IMG/VR virus record: IMGVR_UViG_2541047125_000015
Direction: 5' to 3' (one strand)
DNA length: 10,640 nt
DNA from: a virus
Taxonomy: Duplodnaviria; Heunggongvirae; Uroviricota; Caudoviricetes
Both the position numbers and the translations under genes were made by a program. Under the pieces are notes generated by a model. The model saw only the letters and a program-made list of their open reading frames with translations, made no database searches and was not told where the DNA came from. Positions 4,421 to 10,330 of this stretch are shown here, piece by piece. Within the stretch, counting starts at the first letter, position 1, and each line of letters begins with the position of its first letter.

Positions 4421-4860
4421 TGCCGTGGCAACCATTAAGACGATGCACAGAACCAGGCTGTAACAGGCGCGTGAAGTCCGGCAAGTGTGAGGAGCACAGG
4501 CGGGCGGCATGGCGTGCAGAGGATGCCAGACGAGGACACCGCCGCGCGCGTGGGTACTCCAGACAGTGGGACAAATACCGCGCCATGTATCTGAGTAAAA
4601 ACCCGTTATGCGTGCGATGCCTTGAGAAGGGGATATATACGCCCGCCGTGGTGGTGGATCACATTATCCCGATTAATGGCGGTGATGATGTTCTCTTCTG
4701 GCCCGAATGGAACCATCAGCCATTGTGCCAGGCGTGCCATAACCAGAAAACGAAATGGCTTGATCCGGCAACAAAAAGCAAGCGTGCCGCAGGTGGATTT
4801 CGTGAAGAGGAAGAACGGGCCGCTAACCGCAATAACTGGATGTATGACGCTGATGAATGA
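4420..4860 (+). CDS. HNH endonuclease (phage packaging-associated)
   Basis: 146 aa; Cys-rich N-terminus (CTEPGC...GKCEEH), then VVDHIIPI...NHQPLCQACHNQKT, the HNH His/Asn and zinc-binding Cys/His pattern. Sits immediately upstream of terS as in HK97-like phages; start overlaps the connector stop by 1 nt. Confidence 0.85.
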   Translation: MPWQPLRRCTEPGCNRRVKSGKCEEHRRAAWRAEDARRGHRRARGYSRQWDKYRAMYLSKNPLCVRCLEKGIYTPAVVVDHIIPINGGDDVLFWPEWNHQPLCQACHNQKTKWLDPATKSKRAAGGFREEEERAANRNNWMYDADE

Positions 4861-5026
4861 GCGGGAACAAAACCGCCTTATCCGTGGACTTATAAGGCAG
4901 CGTGACGCATGGAAGACACAGGAAACAGGGCATAAAGATAAAGCGTCAGGACGCGCAGAACGCATCACAGCGAAGCGATTAACCGACCGTGACTGCGAGG
5001 TTATGGAATGTTTCCGCAATCGCTGA
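4844..5026 (+). CDS. Possible small basic ORF between HNH and terS (uncertain)
   Basis: Only the distal 60 codons of track ORF 4622..5026 lie outside the HNH gene. ATG4844 or ATG4853 would give about 58-61 aa (MNEREQNRLIRGLIRQRDAWK...). No convincing SD; may be non-coding cos-flanking DNA. Confidence 0.2.
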   Translation: MTLMNEREQNRLIRGLIRQRDAWKTQETGHKDKASGRAERITAKRLTDRDCEVMECFRNR

Positions 5027-5037
5027 TGAGGCTGTAT

Positions 5038-5082
5038 GACGGGGTGGGGGGCGTTTTCAGGACAAACCCGCCCCCGCCGGGC
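5038..5082. promoter_or_regulatory. Candidate cos / terminase recognition region (G-run and C-run dyad)
   Basis: gacggggtggggggcg ... cccgcccccgccgggc; gggggcg (5047..5053) is complementary to cgccccc (5069..5075). It lies in the 288-bp gap between HNH and terS, where HK97-like phages place cos. An AT-rich stretch follows. Confidence 0.3.
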
Positions 5083-5148
5083 ACCGAACGCCTCCTCAAA
5101 TTTTTATGCACGGGAATTTTTTGAAAAATAATCTGACGAAAAATAAAC

Positions 5149-5505
5149 ATGGCAAGACCACCGAAAGCCCCCGCCTACCTTGATGACATCGCCGTAAAGC
5201 AGTGGCGGGAAAAATCGCGCCAGCTTGCGGAACGGGGAGACCTCACCCCCGCCGACTGGAGTAATCTCGAACTGTATTGCGTCAACTACTCGATATACAG
5301 GAAAGCCGTCGCAGACCTTGCGGCACGCGGGTTCAGCATTGTTAACAGTCAGGGCGGAGAGAGCAGAAACCCCGCATTAAGCGCGAAATCCGACGCTGAA
5401 AGAGTGATGATAAAAATGGCCTCCTTGCTTGGTTTTGACCCGATAAGCCGCCGTAAAAATCCACCGGAAACAGAAGAAGAGGACGAGCTTGACCACCTGG
5501 AATAA
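5149..5505 (+). CDS. terS: Terminase small subunit, P27 family
   Basis: 118 aa; LTPADWSNLELYCVNYSIYRKAVADLAARGF...NPALSAKSDAERVMIKMASLLGF fits the P27-type small terminase pattern, and it sits directly upstream of terL. Confidence 0.85.
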   Translation: MARPPKAPAYLDDIAVKQWREKSRQLAERGDLTPADWSNLELYCVNYSIYRKAVADLAARGFSIVNSQGGESRNPALSAKSDAERVMIKMASLLGFDPISRRKNPPETEEEDELDHLE

Positions 5506-7164: not shown

Positions 7165-7446
7165 ATGACAGAGGCCGAAATACTGGGATTAATCCGCCGC
7201 GTTGCCGGAATCAGCCAGCAGGCTGACGAACAGGCCGCGCAGCCGGACAGCGTGACCGCCGAAAATTATGCGCGTGTGGTTGCTGAGGTGATGCGCCGTG
7301 ATGGTATCCAGCTTAACGATGTAGATATGCGCAACATACGGATCCGCGTTCTTGAAATGCTGGCCTACCGTCGCCGCGTTGAGATGTATCGGGAGAAAGA
7401 GAAAATTACTTACCACTGGAAGAAGCCGGAACGATTGCGGCGGTAA
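7165..7446 (+). CDS. Small hypothetical protein downstream of terL
   Basis: 93 aa from ATG7165 (SD gagg 8 nt upstream; track start GTG7147 overlaps the terL stop). Protein-like composition (MTEAEILGLIRRVAGISQQADEQ...RRRVEMYREKEK); no family recognised. Confidence 0.5.
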   Translation: MTEAEILGLIRRVAGISQQADEQAAQPDSVTAENYARVVAEVMRRDGIQLNDVDMRNIRIRVLEMLAYRRRVEMYREKEKITYHWKKPERLRR

Positions 7447-7461
7447 CTTGCTGATATTCCC

Positions 7462-7505
7462 GATAACGCAAAATTGCGCTGGCTGACTTGTTGCATTGCA
7501 AAAAG
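7462..7505. repeat. Direct repeat A, copy 1 (about 43 bp)
   Basis: gataacgcaaaattgcgctggctgacttgttgcattgcaaaaag. Shares GATAACGC..ATTGCGCTGGCTG...TGCA with copy 2 and contains the palindrome ttgcaTtgcaa. Confidence 0.55.
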
Positions 7506-7600
7506 TTAAGCAGGAAGGCACGGCCTGTAAGATGGGATGCAGTAAGTAGTTCAAGGCTACCTTGTGCTGGCACGCACAGTTAAGCCGTCGGTGCTGGATA

Positions 7601-7615
7601 TCCCCCACTGGGGGA
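7601..7615. promoter_or_regulatory. Perfect 15-bp palindrome TCCCCCA-c-TGGGGGA
   Basis: Read directly from the sequence; lies between the two A repeats. Confidence 0.5.
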
Positions 7616-7647
7616 AAAGCTGGCTACATCCCTCACATCTGAGGACT

Positions 7648-7690
7648 GATAACGCGACATTGCGCTGGCTGGCAAAGTGCAAAATTGCAC
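7648..7690. repeat. Direct repeat A, copy 2 (about 43 bp)
   Basis: gataacgcgacattgcgctggctggcaaagtgcaaaattgcac; roughly 70% identical to copy 1 by eye; ends in the palindrome gtgcaAAATtgcac. Confidence 0.55.
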
Positions 7691-7697
7691 GATGGCC

Positions 7698-7858
7698 TAA
7701 CCCATTGATTATTTCGAAAACCTGCAATGCAGGAAATCGGGGAAGTAAGCCTAAGCTATTGATTGTTTCGAAAACCCTCATTGGGGGATGTCGGGAAAGT
7801 AAGACTAACCCATTGATTCTTCCACAATCCTCAATTTGAGGAGGCAGGGAACATCCCC
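7698..7858. repeat. Tandem array of three ~53-55-bp direct repeat units (B1-B3), each with a TTTCGAAA-type palindrome and a short hairpin
   Basis: Units at 7698..7750, 7751..7805 and 7806..7858 share TAAcCcATTGATT - TTTCGAAAACC - 13-nt hairpin - G-rich tail. Hairpins: cctgcAATgcagg, ccctcATTggggg, cctcaATTtgagg. Confidence 0.65.
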
Positions 7859-7894
7859 TAAATCCGGTGATGTATTCGGCCCCTTTAACGGGTA

Positions 7895-7930
7895 TTGCGA
7901 TTTTCGCAACCCCCTACGAAATTTTCGTAG
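7895..7930. promoter_or_regulatory. Two adjacent dyads built on CGAAA/TTTCG half-sites
   Basis: ttgcg-atttt-cgcaa (7895..7909) and the perfect inverted repeat CTACGAAA-t-TTTCGTAG (7914..7930); same half-site as the TTTCGAAA cores of the B units. Confidence 0.45.
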
Positions 7931-7955
7931 TTTAATTACTCGTCAGATTAATCGC

Positions 7956-8007
7956 TAACCCACTGATATTTTCGGAAACCTCAATTTGAGGAGGCCGGAA
8001 CGTCTAC
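7956..8007. repeat. Fourth B-type repeat unit (B4), about 100 bp downstream of the tandem array
   Basis: taacccactgatattttcggaaacctcaatttgaggaggccggaacgtctac; same architecture, and its hairpin cctcaATTtgagg is identical to that of B3. Confidence 0.6.
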
Positions 8008-8240
8008 ATAGCTGCATCGCCGTAATGATGATTCAGCCCACCAGCCAAATCAGCACAGCAACGACAGAATAGCCCGACACAGAAAAACCACGAATATGGG
8101 GTTTTTGTTATGGCATGGTCATGATGACCGCCCCTGCTCTGAATGGTGGAAATCACCACGCAGATCATCAACCAGCTTCATGACGGATAGCCGGAAAATG
8201 ATAACGGTTAAGCAAAACCATCAGCAAATTTCCCTTTTGT

Positions 8241-8304
8241 TTGTTATTGTTCGTCGTTGTTCGTAGAGCTTCAACGAAATGTGTGGTCAGTTGTGTGGTC
8301 AGTT
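8241..8304. promoter_or_regulatory. Phased TGTTCGT repeats plus a perfect 12-bp tandem duplication just upstream of int
   Basis: TGTTCGT at 8248 and 8258 (10-bp phasing, preceded by ttgtttgttat); gtgtggtcagtt repeated exactly twice at 8281..8292 and 8293..8304, 36 bp before the int start. Confidence 0.5.
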
Positions 8305-8339
8305 TTTTGGGGCTGGAGGACTGAAAAGAGGATCTGATA

Positions 8340-9560
8340 GTGGGAAAAGCACTAAACAAACTGAGCGATTCGACATTAAAAAAATTGGCGGCTGTCCAGG
8401 CAGAAAAAGAGCGTTTTTACTCCGACGGGGGCGGGCTGGAGATTAAACACTCAAAAGGCGGAAAATTAACCTGGTATTTCCGGTACCGAACGGGAGGCCG
8501 TGAGGTTGCCGCAGAGCGGTTAAAGCTGGGGGCTTACCCTGAATTGTCGCTGAAAGCTGCAAGGGAAAAACGCGCACAGTGCCGGGCATGGCTGGCTGAG
8601 GGTAAAAACCCCCGTTATGAGTTGTGCGCCACAGTACAGGAAGCGCTAAAACCCGTTACGGTGAAGGAGGCGATTAACTACTGGCTGGAGGAATATGCGA
8701 AGGATAACCGCAAAGACTACATAAAGCTGGTGCAACGTATGGATAAGCACATCATTTGCCATATAGGGGCAATTCCTCTTGATAAATGCGACACAAGGCA
8801 GTGGATCGCATGTTTTGACCGTGTACGAAAAAAAGCACCAGTAGCAGCGGGGCACGTCATGCAAACCTGCAAACAGGCGCTAAAGTTCTGCCGCAGGAGA
8901 CGCTACGCGTTCAGTAATGCCCTGGACGATTTGATCGTCAGCGATGTGGGTAAGAGAGCAGAAATTCGCGAGAGGGTGCACAGTAACAGCGAATTAAAGG
9001 AAATTTTACGCGCTATTGATGGTGATGTGTTCGCGCCTTACTACAGCGCGTTAATGCGCTTGCTGATTGTGTTCGGGTGCAGAACTGCAGAGGTCAGACT
9101 TTCAGAGATCAAAGAATGGGATCTGAAAGAAATGTTGTGGACAGTGCCAAAAGAGCACAGCAAAACGAAGGTAACGATATTCAGGCCAATCCCCGATGGC
9201 ATTTTGCCGTTCATTCAGAAGCTGGTGGATCAGAACCGGCATACAGGGTTATTGCTCGGAGAACTGAAAAAAGATACCACGGTAGCGCAATATGGGCGAA
9301 ATGCGCATAAGCGGCTTAACCAGGAACATTGGTCACTGCATGACTTTCGCCACACGTTTACAACGATGCTGAACGATTTAGGTGTCGATCCGCATATCGT
9401 GGAGCACATCACAGCGCATCAGATGCCCGGTCAGCAAAAAACCTATAACCATTCACGCTATTTACAGGCGAAGCGGGACGCTCTGAATCTGTGGGTTGAG
9501 CGCCTCGATGTGCTGGCTGGAAATCATGAAAATATTGTTATGCTGAAGGTGGCCAAATGA
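8340..9560 (+). CDS. int: Tyrosine site-specific integrase, P4 type
   Basis: 406 aa from GTG8340 with SD aagagga upstream. N-terminal arm-binding-type region (LEIKHSKGGKLTWYFRYRTGGREV...LGAYPELSLKAAREKR) and C-terminal catalytic region with LHDFRHTF (H-x-x-R) and a downstream Tyr (KTYNHSRYL). Confidence 0.9.
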   Translation: MGKALNKLSDSTLKKLAAVQAEKERFYSDGGGLEIKHSKGGKLTWYFRYRTGGREVAAERLKLGAYPELSLKAAREKRAQCRAWLAEGKNPRYELCATVQEALKPVTVKEAINYWLEEYAKDNRKDYIKLVQRMDKHIICHIGAIPLDKCDTRQWIACFDRVRKKAPVAAGHVMQTCKQALKFCRRRRYAFSNALDDLIVSDVGKRAEIRERVHSNSELKEILRAIDGDVFAPYYSALMRLLIVFGCRTAEVRLSEIKEWDLKEMLWTVPKEHSKTKVTIFRPIPDGILPFIQKLVDQNRHTGLLLGELKKDTTVAQYGRNAHKRLNQEHWSLHDFRHTFTTMLNDLGVDPHIVEHITAHQMPGQQKTYNHSRYLQAKRDALNLWVERLDVLAGNHENIVMLKVAK

Positions 9561-10330
9561 AATTACCTAAAAGACTCTATTATCCGTTACCTGAAGCGGC
9601 AGAAAAGTTAGGCTGTGCAATAAAAGATCTTTATCATTACGCATATATAGGTGCTCTTAATATTTCTGTATATATACCAAAAATTGATGCTAAAAAATTC
9701 AATTTTTCATTATGTCATTTTATCAATGGTTGTAATGAGGAAGAATTAATAAAATATCCTTTCAATGATGAATCTGCTGTTTTTGGAAGTAATTTTACAG
9801 TTGGTTTAACTGGTGACACTGAATTTTTAGATAGTGCCATTATTGGTCCTGTAGGGAATTCTATCAAATGTTATTATGTTAGCAGCTTATCAGGGTTTTA
9901 TTATACTCCGGCATATGTTTTTGCTGATGTCGAATTTAGCATGAGACAATATATAAAATGTTCTCATCTTACGAATAAGTATGGTGATGATAATCTCATG
10001 TATGTTTTTTGTAAGGGTGGTTATGAATTTGATGTTAACTATTTGTGTGTGATGGCTAGTGATTTAGATAATATAAAAAATACGGGAGACTTCCCGAAGA
10101 TAACAGAAGATAGCCCAAAAGCATCGTCAAAAAGGAATGAGGTTATTTACTCTTTAATTAAACTTATTCCAGAAATGGGTGATGTAGACCTGGACACGGA
10201 ATCATTACCTAAAATAGCAGATTTAATTGATTCTATAGCTGCATCCAGAGGGATAGAATTTCCAAAAACACATTGGCAGACATGGCAAAAGTATTTGGGG
10301 CGTGAATCTCAACAAAAACGTAAAAAGTGA
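9557..10330 (+). CDS. AT-rich hypothetical protein (orphan cargo gene), translationally coupled to int
   Basis: 257 aa; ATG9557 overlaps the int stop as ATGA, with SD-like aaggtgg upstream. The DNA is visibly AT-rich (about one-third G+C by eye, versus about half in int) with AAA/ATT/TTT-rich codons. N-terminal RLYYPLPEAAEKLGCAIKDLYHYAYIG loosely resembles an AlpA/excisionase-type HTH; the rest matches nothing I recognise. Confidence 0.7.
   Translation: MKLPKRLYYPLPEAAEKLGCAIKDLYHYAYIGALNISVYIPKIDAKKFNFSLCHFINGCNEEELIKYPFNDESAVFGSNFTVGLTGDTEFLDSAIIGPVGNSIKCYYVSSLSGFYYTPAYVFADVEFSMRQYIKCSHLTNKYGDDNLMYVFCKGGYEFDVNYLCVMASDLDNIKNTGDFPKITEDSPKASSKRNEVIYSLIKLIPEMGDVDLDTESLPKIADLIDSIAASRGIEFPKTHWQTWQKYLGRESQQKRKK

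Follow-up and report, generated by a model that had tools for sequence, protein, structure and literature searches.

Tandem non-coding copies of a short phage roi gene segment at the end of E. coli phage satellites

Organization of the terminal module

The window here analysed, a 10,640-nucleotide stretch of DNA, corresponds to the O157:H7 capsid-forming satellite (cf-PICI, EcCIEDL933-like) in circularly permuted form. Between its last late gene and att lies a 0.7-kb non-coding module (7447-8130), made of a leader, an array of repeated units and a tail, whose features and neighbouring elements, as read from the sequence and from comparison with other satellites and phages, are the following.

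7165-7446, + strand: 93-aa ORF of unknown function (PHROG 1561) that usually precedes the module, given as context and not part of the array.
7447-8130, no strand assigned: conserved terminal non-coding module of E. coli satellites.
7462-7485, + strand: leader repeat copy 1, GATAACGCAAAATTGCGCTGGCTG, with a palindromic core.
7648-7671, + strand: leader repeat copy 2, 92% identical to copy 1 and followed by the palindrome GTGCAAAATTGCAC; it lies directly upstream of unit 1 in all satellites examined.
7695-7748, + strand: unit 1 (U1), with an IHF core on the minus strand at 7698-7710, TTTCGAAA at 7712-7719 and the dyad CCTGCAATGCAGG at 7721-7733.
7749-7802, + strand: unit 2 (U2), with an IHF core on the minus strand at 7752-7764, TTTCGAAA at 7766-7773 and the dyad CCCTCATTGGGGG at 7775-7787 (perfect CCCCCATTGGGGG in most other satellites).
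7803-7856, + strand: unit 3 (U3), with an IHF core on the minus strand at 7806-7818 and the dyad TCCTCAATTTGAGGA at 7828-7842.
7886-7937, + strand: degenerate fifth unit (U3b), carrying TTGCGATTTTCGCAA (7895-7909) and the dyad CTACGAAATTTTCGTAG (7914-7930), but no IHF consensus.
7953-8006, + strand: unit 4 (U4), with the IHF-like core TATCAGTGGGTTA on the minus strand at 7956-7968 (1 mismatch) and the dyad CCTCAATTTGAGG at 7979-7991.
8081-8106, + strand: A-tract, weak stem and T-tract (AGAAAAACCACGAATATGGGGTTTTT), a possible weak bidirectional terminator within the module tail.
8117-8129, no strand assigned: palindrome GGTCATGATGACC marking the end of the module, where homology between satellite types stops.
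8237-8306, no strand assigned: att identity block shared by attL and attR of the integrated island, containing a doubled TGTGTGGTCAGT (8280-8303), the likely integrase-specific arm or core-proximal sites; it is not part of the array.
8340-9560, + strand: tyrosine integrase with an Arm-DNA-bind_3 domain, given as context.

The 93-aa ORF, annotated in RefSeq, gave a PHROG hit with E=1e-56 and no Pfam hit, and is about 85% identical between two satellite types, while the non-coding DNA after it is about 100% identical. The module is the best-conserved part of otherwise divergent E. coli satellites, being the only long segment near 100% identity between a cf-PICI and a helper-embedded PICI, and its leader (7447-7700) occurs in 808 of 5426 complete E. 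coli genomes. No phage homologue was found for the leader or for its repeats. A sigma-54 promoter search of the leader gave one exact TGGC-N7-TTGCW match, but matches with one mismatch were at chance level and the motif is not conserved. The A-tract/T-tract element of the tail was not called by the terminator scan and gave only a weak match (E=3) to KilA-N genes.

No plausible ORF exists on either strand of the module. An open frame runs across U3-U1 on the minus strand, but it has no start upstream of U2, is flanked by stops and is not annotated in RefSeq, so that a minus-strand coding repeat protein was rejected. No ORF follows the array before att, in disagreement with a type III toxin-antitoxin (ToxI-like) arrangement, in which the repeats immediately precede a toxin ORF. 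Scans for tRNA and tmRNA found nothing, and Rfam 15 models, including C4, isrK and phage sRNAs, gave no hit at the gathering threshold in the window or in the whole island, the best sub-threshold hits having E of 0.16 or worse and being irrelevant.

Repeated units, co-varying dyads and homology to roi

The earlier note, made from the sequence alone, described four direct repeats of about 53 bp, three tandem and one displaced, whose hairpin stems differ between units but stay paired, and this observation is confirmed. Repeat detection reports one family of four 54-nt copies at 7695-7748, 7749-7802, 7803-7856 and 7953-8006, with identities to copy 1 of 80, 63 and 61% and spacings of 54, 54 and 150, and tandem repeat analysis (TRF) finds the three tandem copies (period 54, score 164); the period is therefore 54. 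The shared motif TAACCCATTGATT is exact in U1 and U3, while U2 has TAAGCTATTGATT and U4 has TAACCCACTGATA, and TTTCGAAA is exact in U1 and U2 but degenerate in U3 and U4. The hairpins, CCTGC-AAT-GCAGG (7721-7733), CCCTC-ATT-GGGGG (7775-7787, one T.G pair) and CCTCA-ATT-TGAGG (7829-7841 and 7979-7991), are exactly as the note described, with the fifth, diverged unit lying in the apparent gap.

The pattern exceeds chance. Perfect odd palindromes with arms of at least 6 bp number 6 in 7447-8130, against 0.19 expected (maximum 2 in 300 shuffles; about 30-fold enrichment), while the rest of the window is at expectation. Better than chance covariation on a larger alignment had been set beforehand as a condition, and on 21 distinct units or roi alleles the 6 dyad pairs are complementary in 98.4% of cells, with four of the 6 pairs changing on both sides; none of 500 shuffles reaches this, and slid controls give 27-59%. 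Other satellites show at least three further dyad types at the same unit position.

Two facts that the note missed are decisive. First, each unit matches the same roughly 54 nt (codons 41-58) of lambdoid-phage roi ('anti-repressor') genes, which encode a Rha-type winged-helix DNA-binding N-terminus and a KilAC C-terminus. The blastn hits, at E=1e-9 to 3e-11, all fall in register at the same gene position (nt about 118-171; about 120-175 across the matched genes). Unit 2 matches roi of VT2-Sakai/HK629 at 88.7% over 53 nt (E=1e-9), units 3 and 4 match the roi or antirepressor genes of phi330, H-19B, CUS-3, P27, HK140 and Kapi1 and are 95-98% identical to prophage KilAC genes (over 43 nt for unit 3), and unit 1 matches the Stx2a_WGPS6 antirepressor. 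Different units match different roi alleles in the dyad and adjacent spacer: U1 matches allele C (PALQ class) at 24 of 24 positions, U2 allele A (PPMV class) at 20 of 23, U3 allele D (phi330 class) at 38 of 38, and U4 allele B (PQIEVSE class) at 23 of 23, while positions 7914-7937 of U3b match the same relative position of a Hafnia-phage KilAC antirepressor gene at 24 of 24. On the contrary, the IHF part is homogenised among satellite units rather than allele-specific. The allele classes also differ in the predicted recognition helix, and helix and dyad classes coincide: KQSIER with CCCCCAATGG(T)GG, K(I/V)SI(E/D)R with CTGCATTGCAG, and KRTIET with CCTCAAWTTGAGG, although this co-variation could be plain linkage, since the two lie within 60 nt of each other.

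Second, the units hold an IHF core consensus (WATCAANNNNTTR) on the minus strand. The exact matches in units 1-3 are the only three in the window, against 0.47 expected, and none of 200 shuffles reaches 3; U4 has one mismatch. The A/T-rich 5' flank reads TTTTCGAAAT, and variation among 28 distinct units falls mainly in the N4 positions. All 160 sampled roi loci keep exactly one IHF core, at nt 153-165, through amino-acid changes and always with ATC and TTA codons, and HK022 roi has a single IHF core, next to the dyad.

A whole roi pseudogene was rejected, since tblastn finds only aa 42-60, and no Roi homologue was found in the satellites. A loose tandem pattern searched in viral contigs returned only chance hits, and a stricter one searched in 100,044 species-representative genomes returned 78 chance hits, none in Enterobacteriaceae, suggesting that the canonical array is confined to particular E. 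coli strains.

Interpretation of the array

The interpretation given in the earlier note is only partly supported. It was right in that symmetry, and not sequence, is what is kept at the dyad position, and in that the units are not plasmid-type iterons, and are not a CRISPR array, as they abut without spacers, are only 61-80% alike, and no cas genes are present. Most of the candidate roles it proposed, on the contrary, are contradicted by the comparative data and appear very unlikely, despite the proximity of the array to att and int in the permuted window and the repeat character of the region. Integrase arm-type or AlpA sites are not supported because the array is about 100% identical between satellites whose integrases are only 40% identical and which use different att sites, because it lies 230-610 bp from the att block, with the likely integrase-specific doubled motifs nearer the core (8280-8303; an analogous doubled motif is described in HE-PICIs, PMC10111431), and because the whole block is inverted relative to att in L391, an EcCIMP1-like satellite. 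A replication origin is not supported, since the array lies about 9 kb from the primase/rep gene and is shared by islands with unrelated replicases (a DUF927 primase, a RepA helicase or a DUF5906 primase), whereas the mapped PICI ori is next to pri (PMC6092414). Regarding a packaging signal, the lambda cosN search was negative in the window, the satellite cosN lies 1 kb away, upstream of the terS/rpp gene (at 14066 in the sequence designated L002; PMC9026076), and the same array occurs with lambda-type and P27/HNH-type packaging modules.

A related possibility is an IHF-phased architectural element for excision/integration, replication or packaging, with the dyads bound by an unidentified satellite or host factor, such as the adjacent 93-aa protein, and the resemblance to roi being only ancestral. 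The exact 54-bp phasing of three IHF cores (about 5 helical turns), the constant location in the terminal region next to att and the frequent adjacency of the 93-aa ORF favour it. However, the 93-aa ORF is absent next to some arrays, the observations just mentioned on integrases, att sites, replicases, packaging systems, distance and inversion oppose it, and it does not explain why different units track different roi alleles, so that this reading is considered unlikely.

What the sequence comparisons establish is that the array is a tandem set of 'roi boxes', non-coding copies of the intragenic segment, each with an IHF core consensus, a roughly 10-bp spacer and a 13-bp perfect dyad of the form CC-NNN-A-W-T-NNN-GG; that dyad and spacer are allele-specific, the four units matching four roi allele classes; and that the array sits in the most conserved, terminal non-coding module of satellites which encode no Roi homologue themselves. 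Beyond this, function is inferred from sequence alone, both for binding and bending by IHF and for binding of Roi to the dyads. In the preferred reading, which is held tentatively (probability around 0.4), the array would work as double-stranded DNA, with host IHF binding and bending each unit and Roi-type proteins made by co-resident or infecting lambdoid phages binding their cognate dyads. The satellite would therefore carry one docking site per Roi specificity class, titrating or sensing these phage regulators, especially once it has amplified, and the co-varying stems would be the two half-sites of operators for homodimeric proteins of different specificity, not RNA helices. The gain for the satellite might be buffering of a protein that can block lytic growth, a roadblock or insulator at the end of the late operon, or a cue.

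In agreement with this reading, HK022 Roi is reported to bind a site inside its own gene that is closely linked to an IHF site, IHF reportedly stabilising Roi binding (Clerget & Boccard 1996, J Bacteriol 178:4077, cited in PMC3430580). The symmetry includes the bases flanking the centre (A30/T32 are invariant), as expected for a double-stranded dyad, and in most satellites the dyad of unit 2 is more perfect than the one in the gene. The satellite copies the hypervariable, allele-specific cassette, needing one unit per allele, and not the near-invariant remainder of roi, which would serve better for antisense pairing or recombination, and the inversion of the block relative to island polarity and att in another satellite indicates that orientation does not matter. 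Nonetheless, the only proven helpers of this satellite, HK106 and HK446, have no roi gene and no unit-like sequence; Roi therefore cannot be the obligatory induction signal, and any Roi-linked role must be accessory or directed at other phages. In addition, arms of 4-9 bp and centres of 3 or 5 nt are found among unit types, which is more natural for hairpins than for a single operator family, and many units are recent copies, so that conservation may partly reflect youth.

An antisense or structured RNA array, the remaining candidate of the note in its structured-RNA form, is not excluded, although it is considered unlikely. In this view the + strand would be transcribed, for example as the 3' UTR of the satellite late operon, yielding hairpin-bearing segments complementary to the 5' coding region of roi mRNAs of several alleles, which would silence or sense them, resembling the control of antirepressors by sar (P22) or c4 (P1). 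In this window the + strand is antisense to every matching roi gene, the array directly follows the late genes with no strong terminator between them, both strands fold better than shuffles (z = -3.1 for + and -2.4 for -), compensatory changes keep the stems, stem lengths vary between unit types, and the T.G pair of unit 2 is tolerated only in + strand RNA. On the contrary, there is no Rfam hit, no convincing promoter was found and there is only a weak terminator-like hairpin; minus-strand intrinsic terminators (dyad plus TTTT) were not called by the terminator scan and are absent in the U3 type. Moreover, 3-nt loops are poor kissing loops, and the symmetry runs through the 'loop', in which A-W-T is invariant. 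Complementarity to the cognate allele is perfect for only 23-38 nt and is broken in the IHF part, U2 having 6 mismatches in 51 nt against allele A. The block is inverted relative to island transcription in L391, where read-through RNA would be sense to roi; the wobble evidence is mixed, two variants favouring the minus strand and one the plus strand; targeting the hypervariable cassette rather than the invariant part of roi is an inefficient design; and the retained IHF consensus is left unexplained.

It is also possible, though rather doubtful, that the units are relics of repeated illegitimate or homologous exchange with phage roi genes, or short homology patches that let phage recombinases (Red, Erf, RecT) recombine satellite and phage, the IHF site and dyad being passengers inherited from the gene. 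The units are in frame with each other (54 nt = 18 codons) and read as roi-like peptide on the minus strand. Their number and composition vary from 1 to 5 between satellites, with hybrid units and a deletion, recombination between the identical dyads of U3 and U4 explaining the 150-bp shorter array in other satellites, and perfect identity runs of 23-38 bp are within the range used by phage annealases. However, only the 54-nt cassette was ever copied, while a conserved part of roi would give homology to all alleles with one patch; the module is the best-conserved part of divergent satellites, with at least one unit kept in all 12 distinct loci examined; and in a non-coding context the dyads stay perfect (124 of 126 cells) and the IHF core intact, while the unit tails drift.

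A bolder and less likely extension of the preferred reading is that the satellite keeps a multi-allelic catalogue of operator modules taken from its phages' own regulator gene, with one IHF-assisted docking site per Roi specificity class, enabling it to capture or read the Roi protein of whichever lambdoid phage is present. The hypervariable cassette of roi and the changing unit composition of satellite arrays would then be the two sides of an arms race, the array being a protein-level, DNA-encoded recognition array between a satellite and phages, and the roi cassette a self-contained specificity module in which the operator lies inside the codons for the protein's own DNA-binding wing.

E. 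coli phage satellites (PICIs and cf-PICIs) are common and shape phage and virulence-gene traffic, even though the way in which Gram-negative satellites interact with phage regulators is largely unknown. No description of this module, their best-conserved non-coding DNA, was found in the searchable literature, and searches linking Roi or IHF to PICIs found nothing relevant. Should the array bind IHF and Roi-type proteins, it would provide a concrete, testable cis-element linking satellites to a widespread but poorly understood phage regulator family (Rha/KilAC 'antirepressors', including those of Stx phages), it would explain why roi carries a hypervariable cassette, and it would show that covariation in repeats can reflect operator specificity classes rather than RNA structure.

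Comparison with known systems

In the IHF-containing nucleoprotein sites of lambda (attP H1/H2/H'; cosB R3-I1-R2-R1) an IHF consensus is likewise interleaved with sites for a sequence-specific phage protein, and the location near att is shared, but the array is not linked to the integrase type or to cosN, and its units are 54-bp tandem modules with dyads rather than arm-type or R direct repeats. Titration site clusters, such as datA for DnaA or the incA/iteron arrays of P1 and plasmids, share the proposed mode of action, in which clustered high-affinity sites sequester a regulator with an effect amplified by copy number; here the bound regulator would belong to another element, the phage, the sites are of several specificities, and no replication function or initiator linkage is present. 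The antisense RNAs that control phage antirepressors (P22 sar, P1/P7 c4, P4 CI) have the same target class, and in this window the array is complementary to the mRNA strand, but it gives no match to the Rfam C4 or isrK models, has no defined promoter or terminator, and its orientation relative to transcription is not conserved.

RIP/RIB-type BIMEs of E. coli, REP palindromes flanking an IHF site, also combine small palindromes with an IHF consensus in a repeated non-coding module, although the palindromes here are unrelated to REP in sequence and length, and the units are homologous to a phage gene segment and confined to satellites. Silent partial-gene cassette arrays, as Neisseria pilS, are similarly tandem, non-expressed sets of allelic copies of the hypervariable part of a gene expressed elsewhere; in the present case donor and recipient would be different genetic elements with opposed interests, the copies are only 18 codons long, and no evidence of transfer to roi was found. 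Finally, the intragenic Roi/IHF site reported for phage HK022 roi is, as inferred from the sequence, the same module, an IHF core plus an adjacent dyad at nt 130-165 of roi, present in all five allele classes sampled, and the units are direct copies of this module; here the module, whose binding by Roi is inferred, is outside any gene, multimerised to 1-5 copies that combine several allele types, and carried by a satellite that has no roi.

Repeat units and their setting in the satellite

The sequence was first explored for the direct repeats with co-varying hairpin stems that the earlier note had described, and that observation holds, as the repeats are present as described. A repeat search returned a single family of four 54-nt copies, the second to fourth being 80, 63 and 61% identical to the first, while TRF recovered the tandem part with a period of 54. 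Each copy carries a 5-bp-stem, 3-nt-loop inverted repeat at the same register, and a fifth, diverged unit lies in the apparent gap before the last copy:

7695, unit 1 (U1), with CCTGC-AAT-GCAGG
7749, unit 2 (U2), with CCCTC-ATT-GGGGG
7803, unit 3 (U3), with CCTCA-ATT-TGAGG
about 7886-7937, diverged fifth unit, with the dyad CTACGAAATTTTCGTAG
7953, unit 4 (U4), with CCTCA-ATT-TGAGG

This pattern is far beyond chance, since the non-coding stretch 7447-8130 contains 6 perfect odd palindromes with arms of at least 6 bp, against 0.19 expected, whereas the rest of the window is at expectation. Two further perfect palindromes lie outside the annotated units, at 7601-7615 and 8117-8129. The first, TCCCCCACTGGGGGA, resembles the unit-2 dyad and may be an old degenerate unit, while the second, GGTCATGATGACC, marks the point where homology between satellite types ends.

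The window encodes capsid, protease, portal, head-completion and connector proteins, an HNH endonuclease, a P27-type TerS and TerL, followed, after about 0.9 kb of non-coding DNA, by an integrase and a hypothetical gene. It is 100% identical to an island of E. coli O157:H7 strains, in whose chromosomes the integrase is at the left end and the repeat region at the right end, next to thiM. Thus, the window is the circularly permuted (or tandem) form of a capsid-forming satellite of the EcCIEDL933 type (bioRxiv 10.1101/2022.09.08.507074). The features surrounding the array are as follows:

569-600, TTGTTCG(N3) repeats upstream of the capsid gene, similar to repeats of the att block
4860-5149, 290-bp non-coding gap between the HNH endonuclease and TerS genes, the usual place for the cos site of HNH-dependent HK97-like packaging systems
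7165-7446, 93-aa ORF (PHROG 1561, function unknown, no Pfam hit)
7462-7485 and 7648-7671, two copies of a 24-nt leader repeat, GATAACGC.A.ATTGCGCTGGCTG
8237-8306 (with 8280-8303 and 8248-8267), 70-bp att identity block shared by attL and attR, containing a doubled TGTGTGGTCAGT and GTTGTTCG-type repeats
9557-10330, 257-aa protein encoded directly after the integrase and overlapping its stop codon, with no Pfam or PHROG match

The array ends 230 bp from the att block and starts 540 bp from it. Other satellites carry different doubled or tripled short motifs near att (GGTGTAGTTAAT x2, GTTGGTTCAG x3, TGTATTGC x2), these being probably integrase- or regulator-specific sites. Each copy of the leader repeat is followed by a small palindrome (TTGCATTGCAA or GTGCAAAATTGCAC). 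This repeat is conserved directly upstream of unit 1 in all satellites examined, and its first copy holds the only exact sigma-54-like TGGC-N7-TTGCW match of the window (7480-7495), although 1-mismatch matches are at chance level. The 93-aa ORF precedes the module in most satellites, and its 3' end resembles a unit tail (GAAGAAGCCGGAACG at 7419 versus GAGGAGGCCGGAACG at 7988), being followed by an IHF-like TATCAGCAAGTTA on the minus strand.

Conservation was then evaluated by comparing this island with L002, a helper-embedded PICI inserted in a prophage portal gene, which has a different integrase (40% identity), a different replicase and a lambda-type packaging module. The non-coding stretch 7420-8130 is essentially 100% identical between the two, while the 93-aa ORF just upstream is only about 85% identical and the remainder of the islands is 75-92% identical or unalignable. 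L002 lacks exactly 150 bp, which is explained by recombination between the identical dyads of units 3 and 4. In L002 the alpA gene lies directly after int, the place occupied here by the 257-aa protein, with the alpA-like HTH gene coming after it. The satellite-specific leader (7447-7700) occurs in 808 of 5426 complete E. coli genomes. In 12 distinct loci the array shows 1-5 units of varying type, and it always lies in the terminal non-coding region next to att, at six different insertion sites. A strict tandem-unit pattern found nothing in Enterobacteriaceae among 100,044 species-representative genomes.

Homology of the units to phage roi genes

A blastn search of the module against 50,697 phage records hit only the units, and only inside roi / 'anti-repressor' genes of lambdoid and Stx phages, no phage homologue being found for the leader. 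All hits fall at the same place in the gene, nt about 120-175 (codons 41-58), and in this window they are antisense to it. The encoded proteins have a Phage_pRha-type N-terminus and a KilAC (ANT) C-terminus, and tblastn shows that no other part of roi is present. Sampling of 160 roi loci from IMG/VR (L024-L103 and L311-L390) shows that roi is nearly invariant after codon 64 but has a hypervariable N-terminal cassette that falls into five classes. Some alleles have a second palindrome (ATGGCAATGCCAT) at nt 17-29.

Classes of the hypervariable roi cassette (class; cassette residues; dyad)
A; PPMVVFEKINNLG; CCCCCAATGGTGG
B/B'; PQ(I/F)EVSERINNLG; CCTCAAWTTGAGG
C; PALQVFEKINNLG; CCTGCATTGCAGG
D; PQIEDCGRINGLG; CCTCAAATTGAGG
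HK022; PPALQHTNIINDLG; CTGCATTGCAG

The units of the window map one-to-one onto four of these classes in the dyad plus the adjacent 10-nt spacer, with U1 matching C at 24/24, U2 matching A at 20/23, U3 matching D at 38/38 and U4 matching B at 23/23. The IHF-core part is, by contrast, homogenised among the satellite units. The fifth unit matches the same position of a different KilAC antirepressor, from Hafnia phage Pocitis76 (24/24).

IHF consensus, dyad symmetry and unsupported roles

On the minus strand each of units 1-3 contains an exact IHF core consensus, WATCAANNNNTTR. These are the only three in the 10.6-kb window, where 0.47 are expected and 0 of 200 shuffles reach three, and unit 4 has one mismatch. 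All 160 roi loci, in every cassette class, have exactly one IHF core, at nt 153-165 (within gene nt 130-165), kept through amino-acid substitutions in the N4 codon and always using ATC (Ile) and TTA (Leu). HK022 roi has a single IHF core in the whole gene, 10 bp from the dyad. This concurs with the work of Clerget & Boccard (1996; reference B59 in PMC3430580), who reportedly found that Roi binds a site within its own gene closely linked to an IHF site, that IHF stabilises this binding, and that Roi blocks lytic growth in IHF-deficient hosts.

In an ungapped alignment of 21 distinct units and alleles, the six symmetric pairs are complementary in 98.4% of cells and four pairs show changes on both sides, while 0 of 500 shuffles reach this and slid controls give 27-59%. 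The pair flanking the centre (A..T) is invariant and only the central base flips between A and T. The element is therefore a perfect 13-bp dyad, not merely a stem with a free loop. Other satellites add further types at the same position, namely TTCGCC-AGC-GGCGAA, AATTTCCAC-TGACT-GTGGAAATT and CAGC-CATTA-GCTG.

The interpretation put forward in the earlier note is only partly supported: its candidate roles as integrase arm-type or accessory-factor sites, satellite replication origin or packaging signal find no support, although its suggestion of a transcribed array of structured RNA repeats is not excluded. Regarding integrase or AlpA arm sites, the array is independent of integrase type, and the integrase-specific doubled motifs lie closer to the core (8280-8303 here; compare PMC10111431). 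Moreover, in an EcCIMP1-like satellite next to dinD (L391 16001-16131, = L305 2488-2630) the whole leader+unit block is inverted relative to both att and island gene polarity, lying just beyond a PerC-family gene; this satellite type encodes an AntA/AntB antirepressor of its own. Regarding cos, the satellite cosN in L002 is 1 kb upstream, before the terS/rpp gene (PMC9026076, PMC6739421), and a search of the window returned no cosN-like site. Regarding a replication origin of the iteron type, the array is far from, and independent of, the replicase, and the PICI ori maps beside pri (PMC6092414). Searches of the sequence likewise gave no support for a CRISPR array, in agreement with the earlier note, nor for a type III antitoxin array, a tRNA or any known Rfam family, and no plausible gene is present.

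Inferred mechanism and comparison with known systems

Three ways remain in which a satellite could use copies of a phage gene segment: as protein-binding DNA, as antisense RNA or as recombination homology. The first is tentatively favoured, with a probability of about 0.4. The segment copied is the one place in roi that holds an IHF site and, reportedly, a closely linked Roi site. In addition, the satellite copied the hypervariable, allele-specific cassette and needs one unit per allele, whereas for antisense pairing or recombination the invariant 500 nt of roi would serve all alleles at once. Within units, the allele-specific part is the dyad and spacer while the IHF part is generic, which is the pattern expected for a specific operator combined with a generic bending site, and which breaks long complementarity. 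The symmetry also extends through the centre, unit 2 being a more perfect dyad than its gene counterpart, and the orientation of the block is not conserved. Finally, the predicted recognition helices of Roi fall into the same classes as the dyads, although linkage could produce this.

Nonetheless, several observations weigh against this reading. The only experimentally shown helpers of EcCIEDL933, HK106 and HK446 (L309 and L310, whole genomes), have ninF directly followed by ninG and contain no roi gene and no unit-like sequence, so that Roi cannot be the obligatory inducer and the array must be accessory or aimed at other (roi+) phages, such as the Stx prophages of the same hosts. Stem geometry varies among unit types, which suits hairpins, and RNA folding is better than shuffles on both strands (z = -3.1 and -2.4), although this does not discriminate between strands and the wobble evidence is mixed. 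Many units are, moreover, young copies. Homology, allele mapping, IHF consensus, dyad covariation, conservation and distribution are regarded as demonstrated by the analysis, while binding of IHF and Roi, titration or sensing, and the benefit to the satellite are inferred from sequence. On this reading, exact 54-bp phasing of IHF bends with interleaved Roi dimers would build a compact nucleoprotein array which, after satellite amplification, could titrate or read out Roi from any of several phage types.

Literature searches found no link of Roi or IHF to PICIs and no description of this terminal module. Clusters of regulator-binding sites are themselves known, and what would be new here is that they are multi-allelic, borrowed from inside a phage gene and carried by a satellite. 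If the arms-race or decoy reading is right, the array would be a new type of satellite-phage recognition device, and it would also give a function to the hypervariable roi cassette.

Among known systems, the antisense regulators (sar, c4, CI) remain a rival on mechanism, but their defining transcription-unit features were not found for the array. The closest known object is the intragenic Roi/IHF site of HK022 roi, of which module the units are copies, while the proposed working mode resembles titration clusters (datA, incA) and IHF-assisted nucleoprotein sites (attP, cosB).
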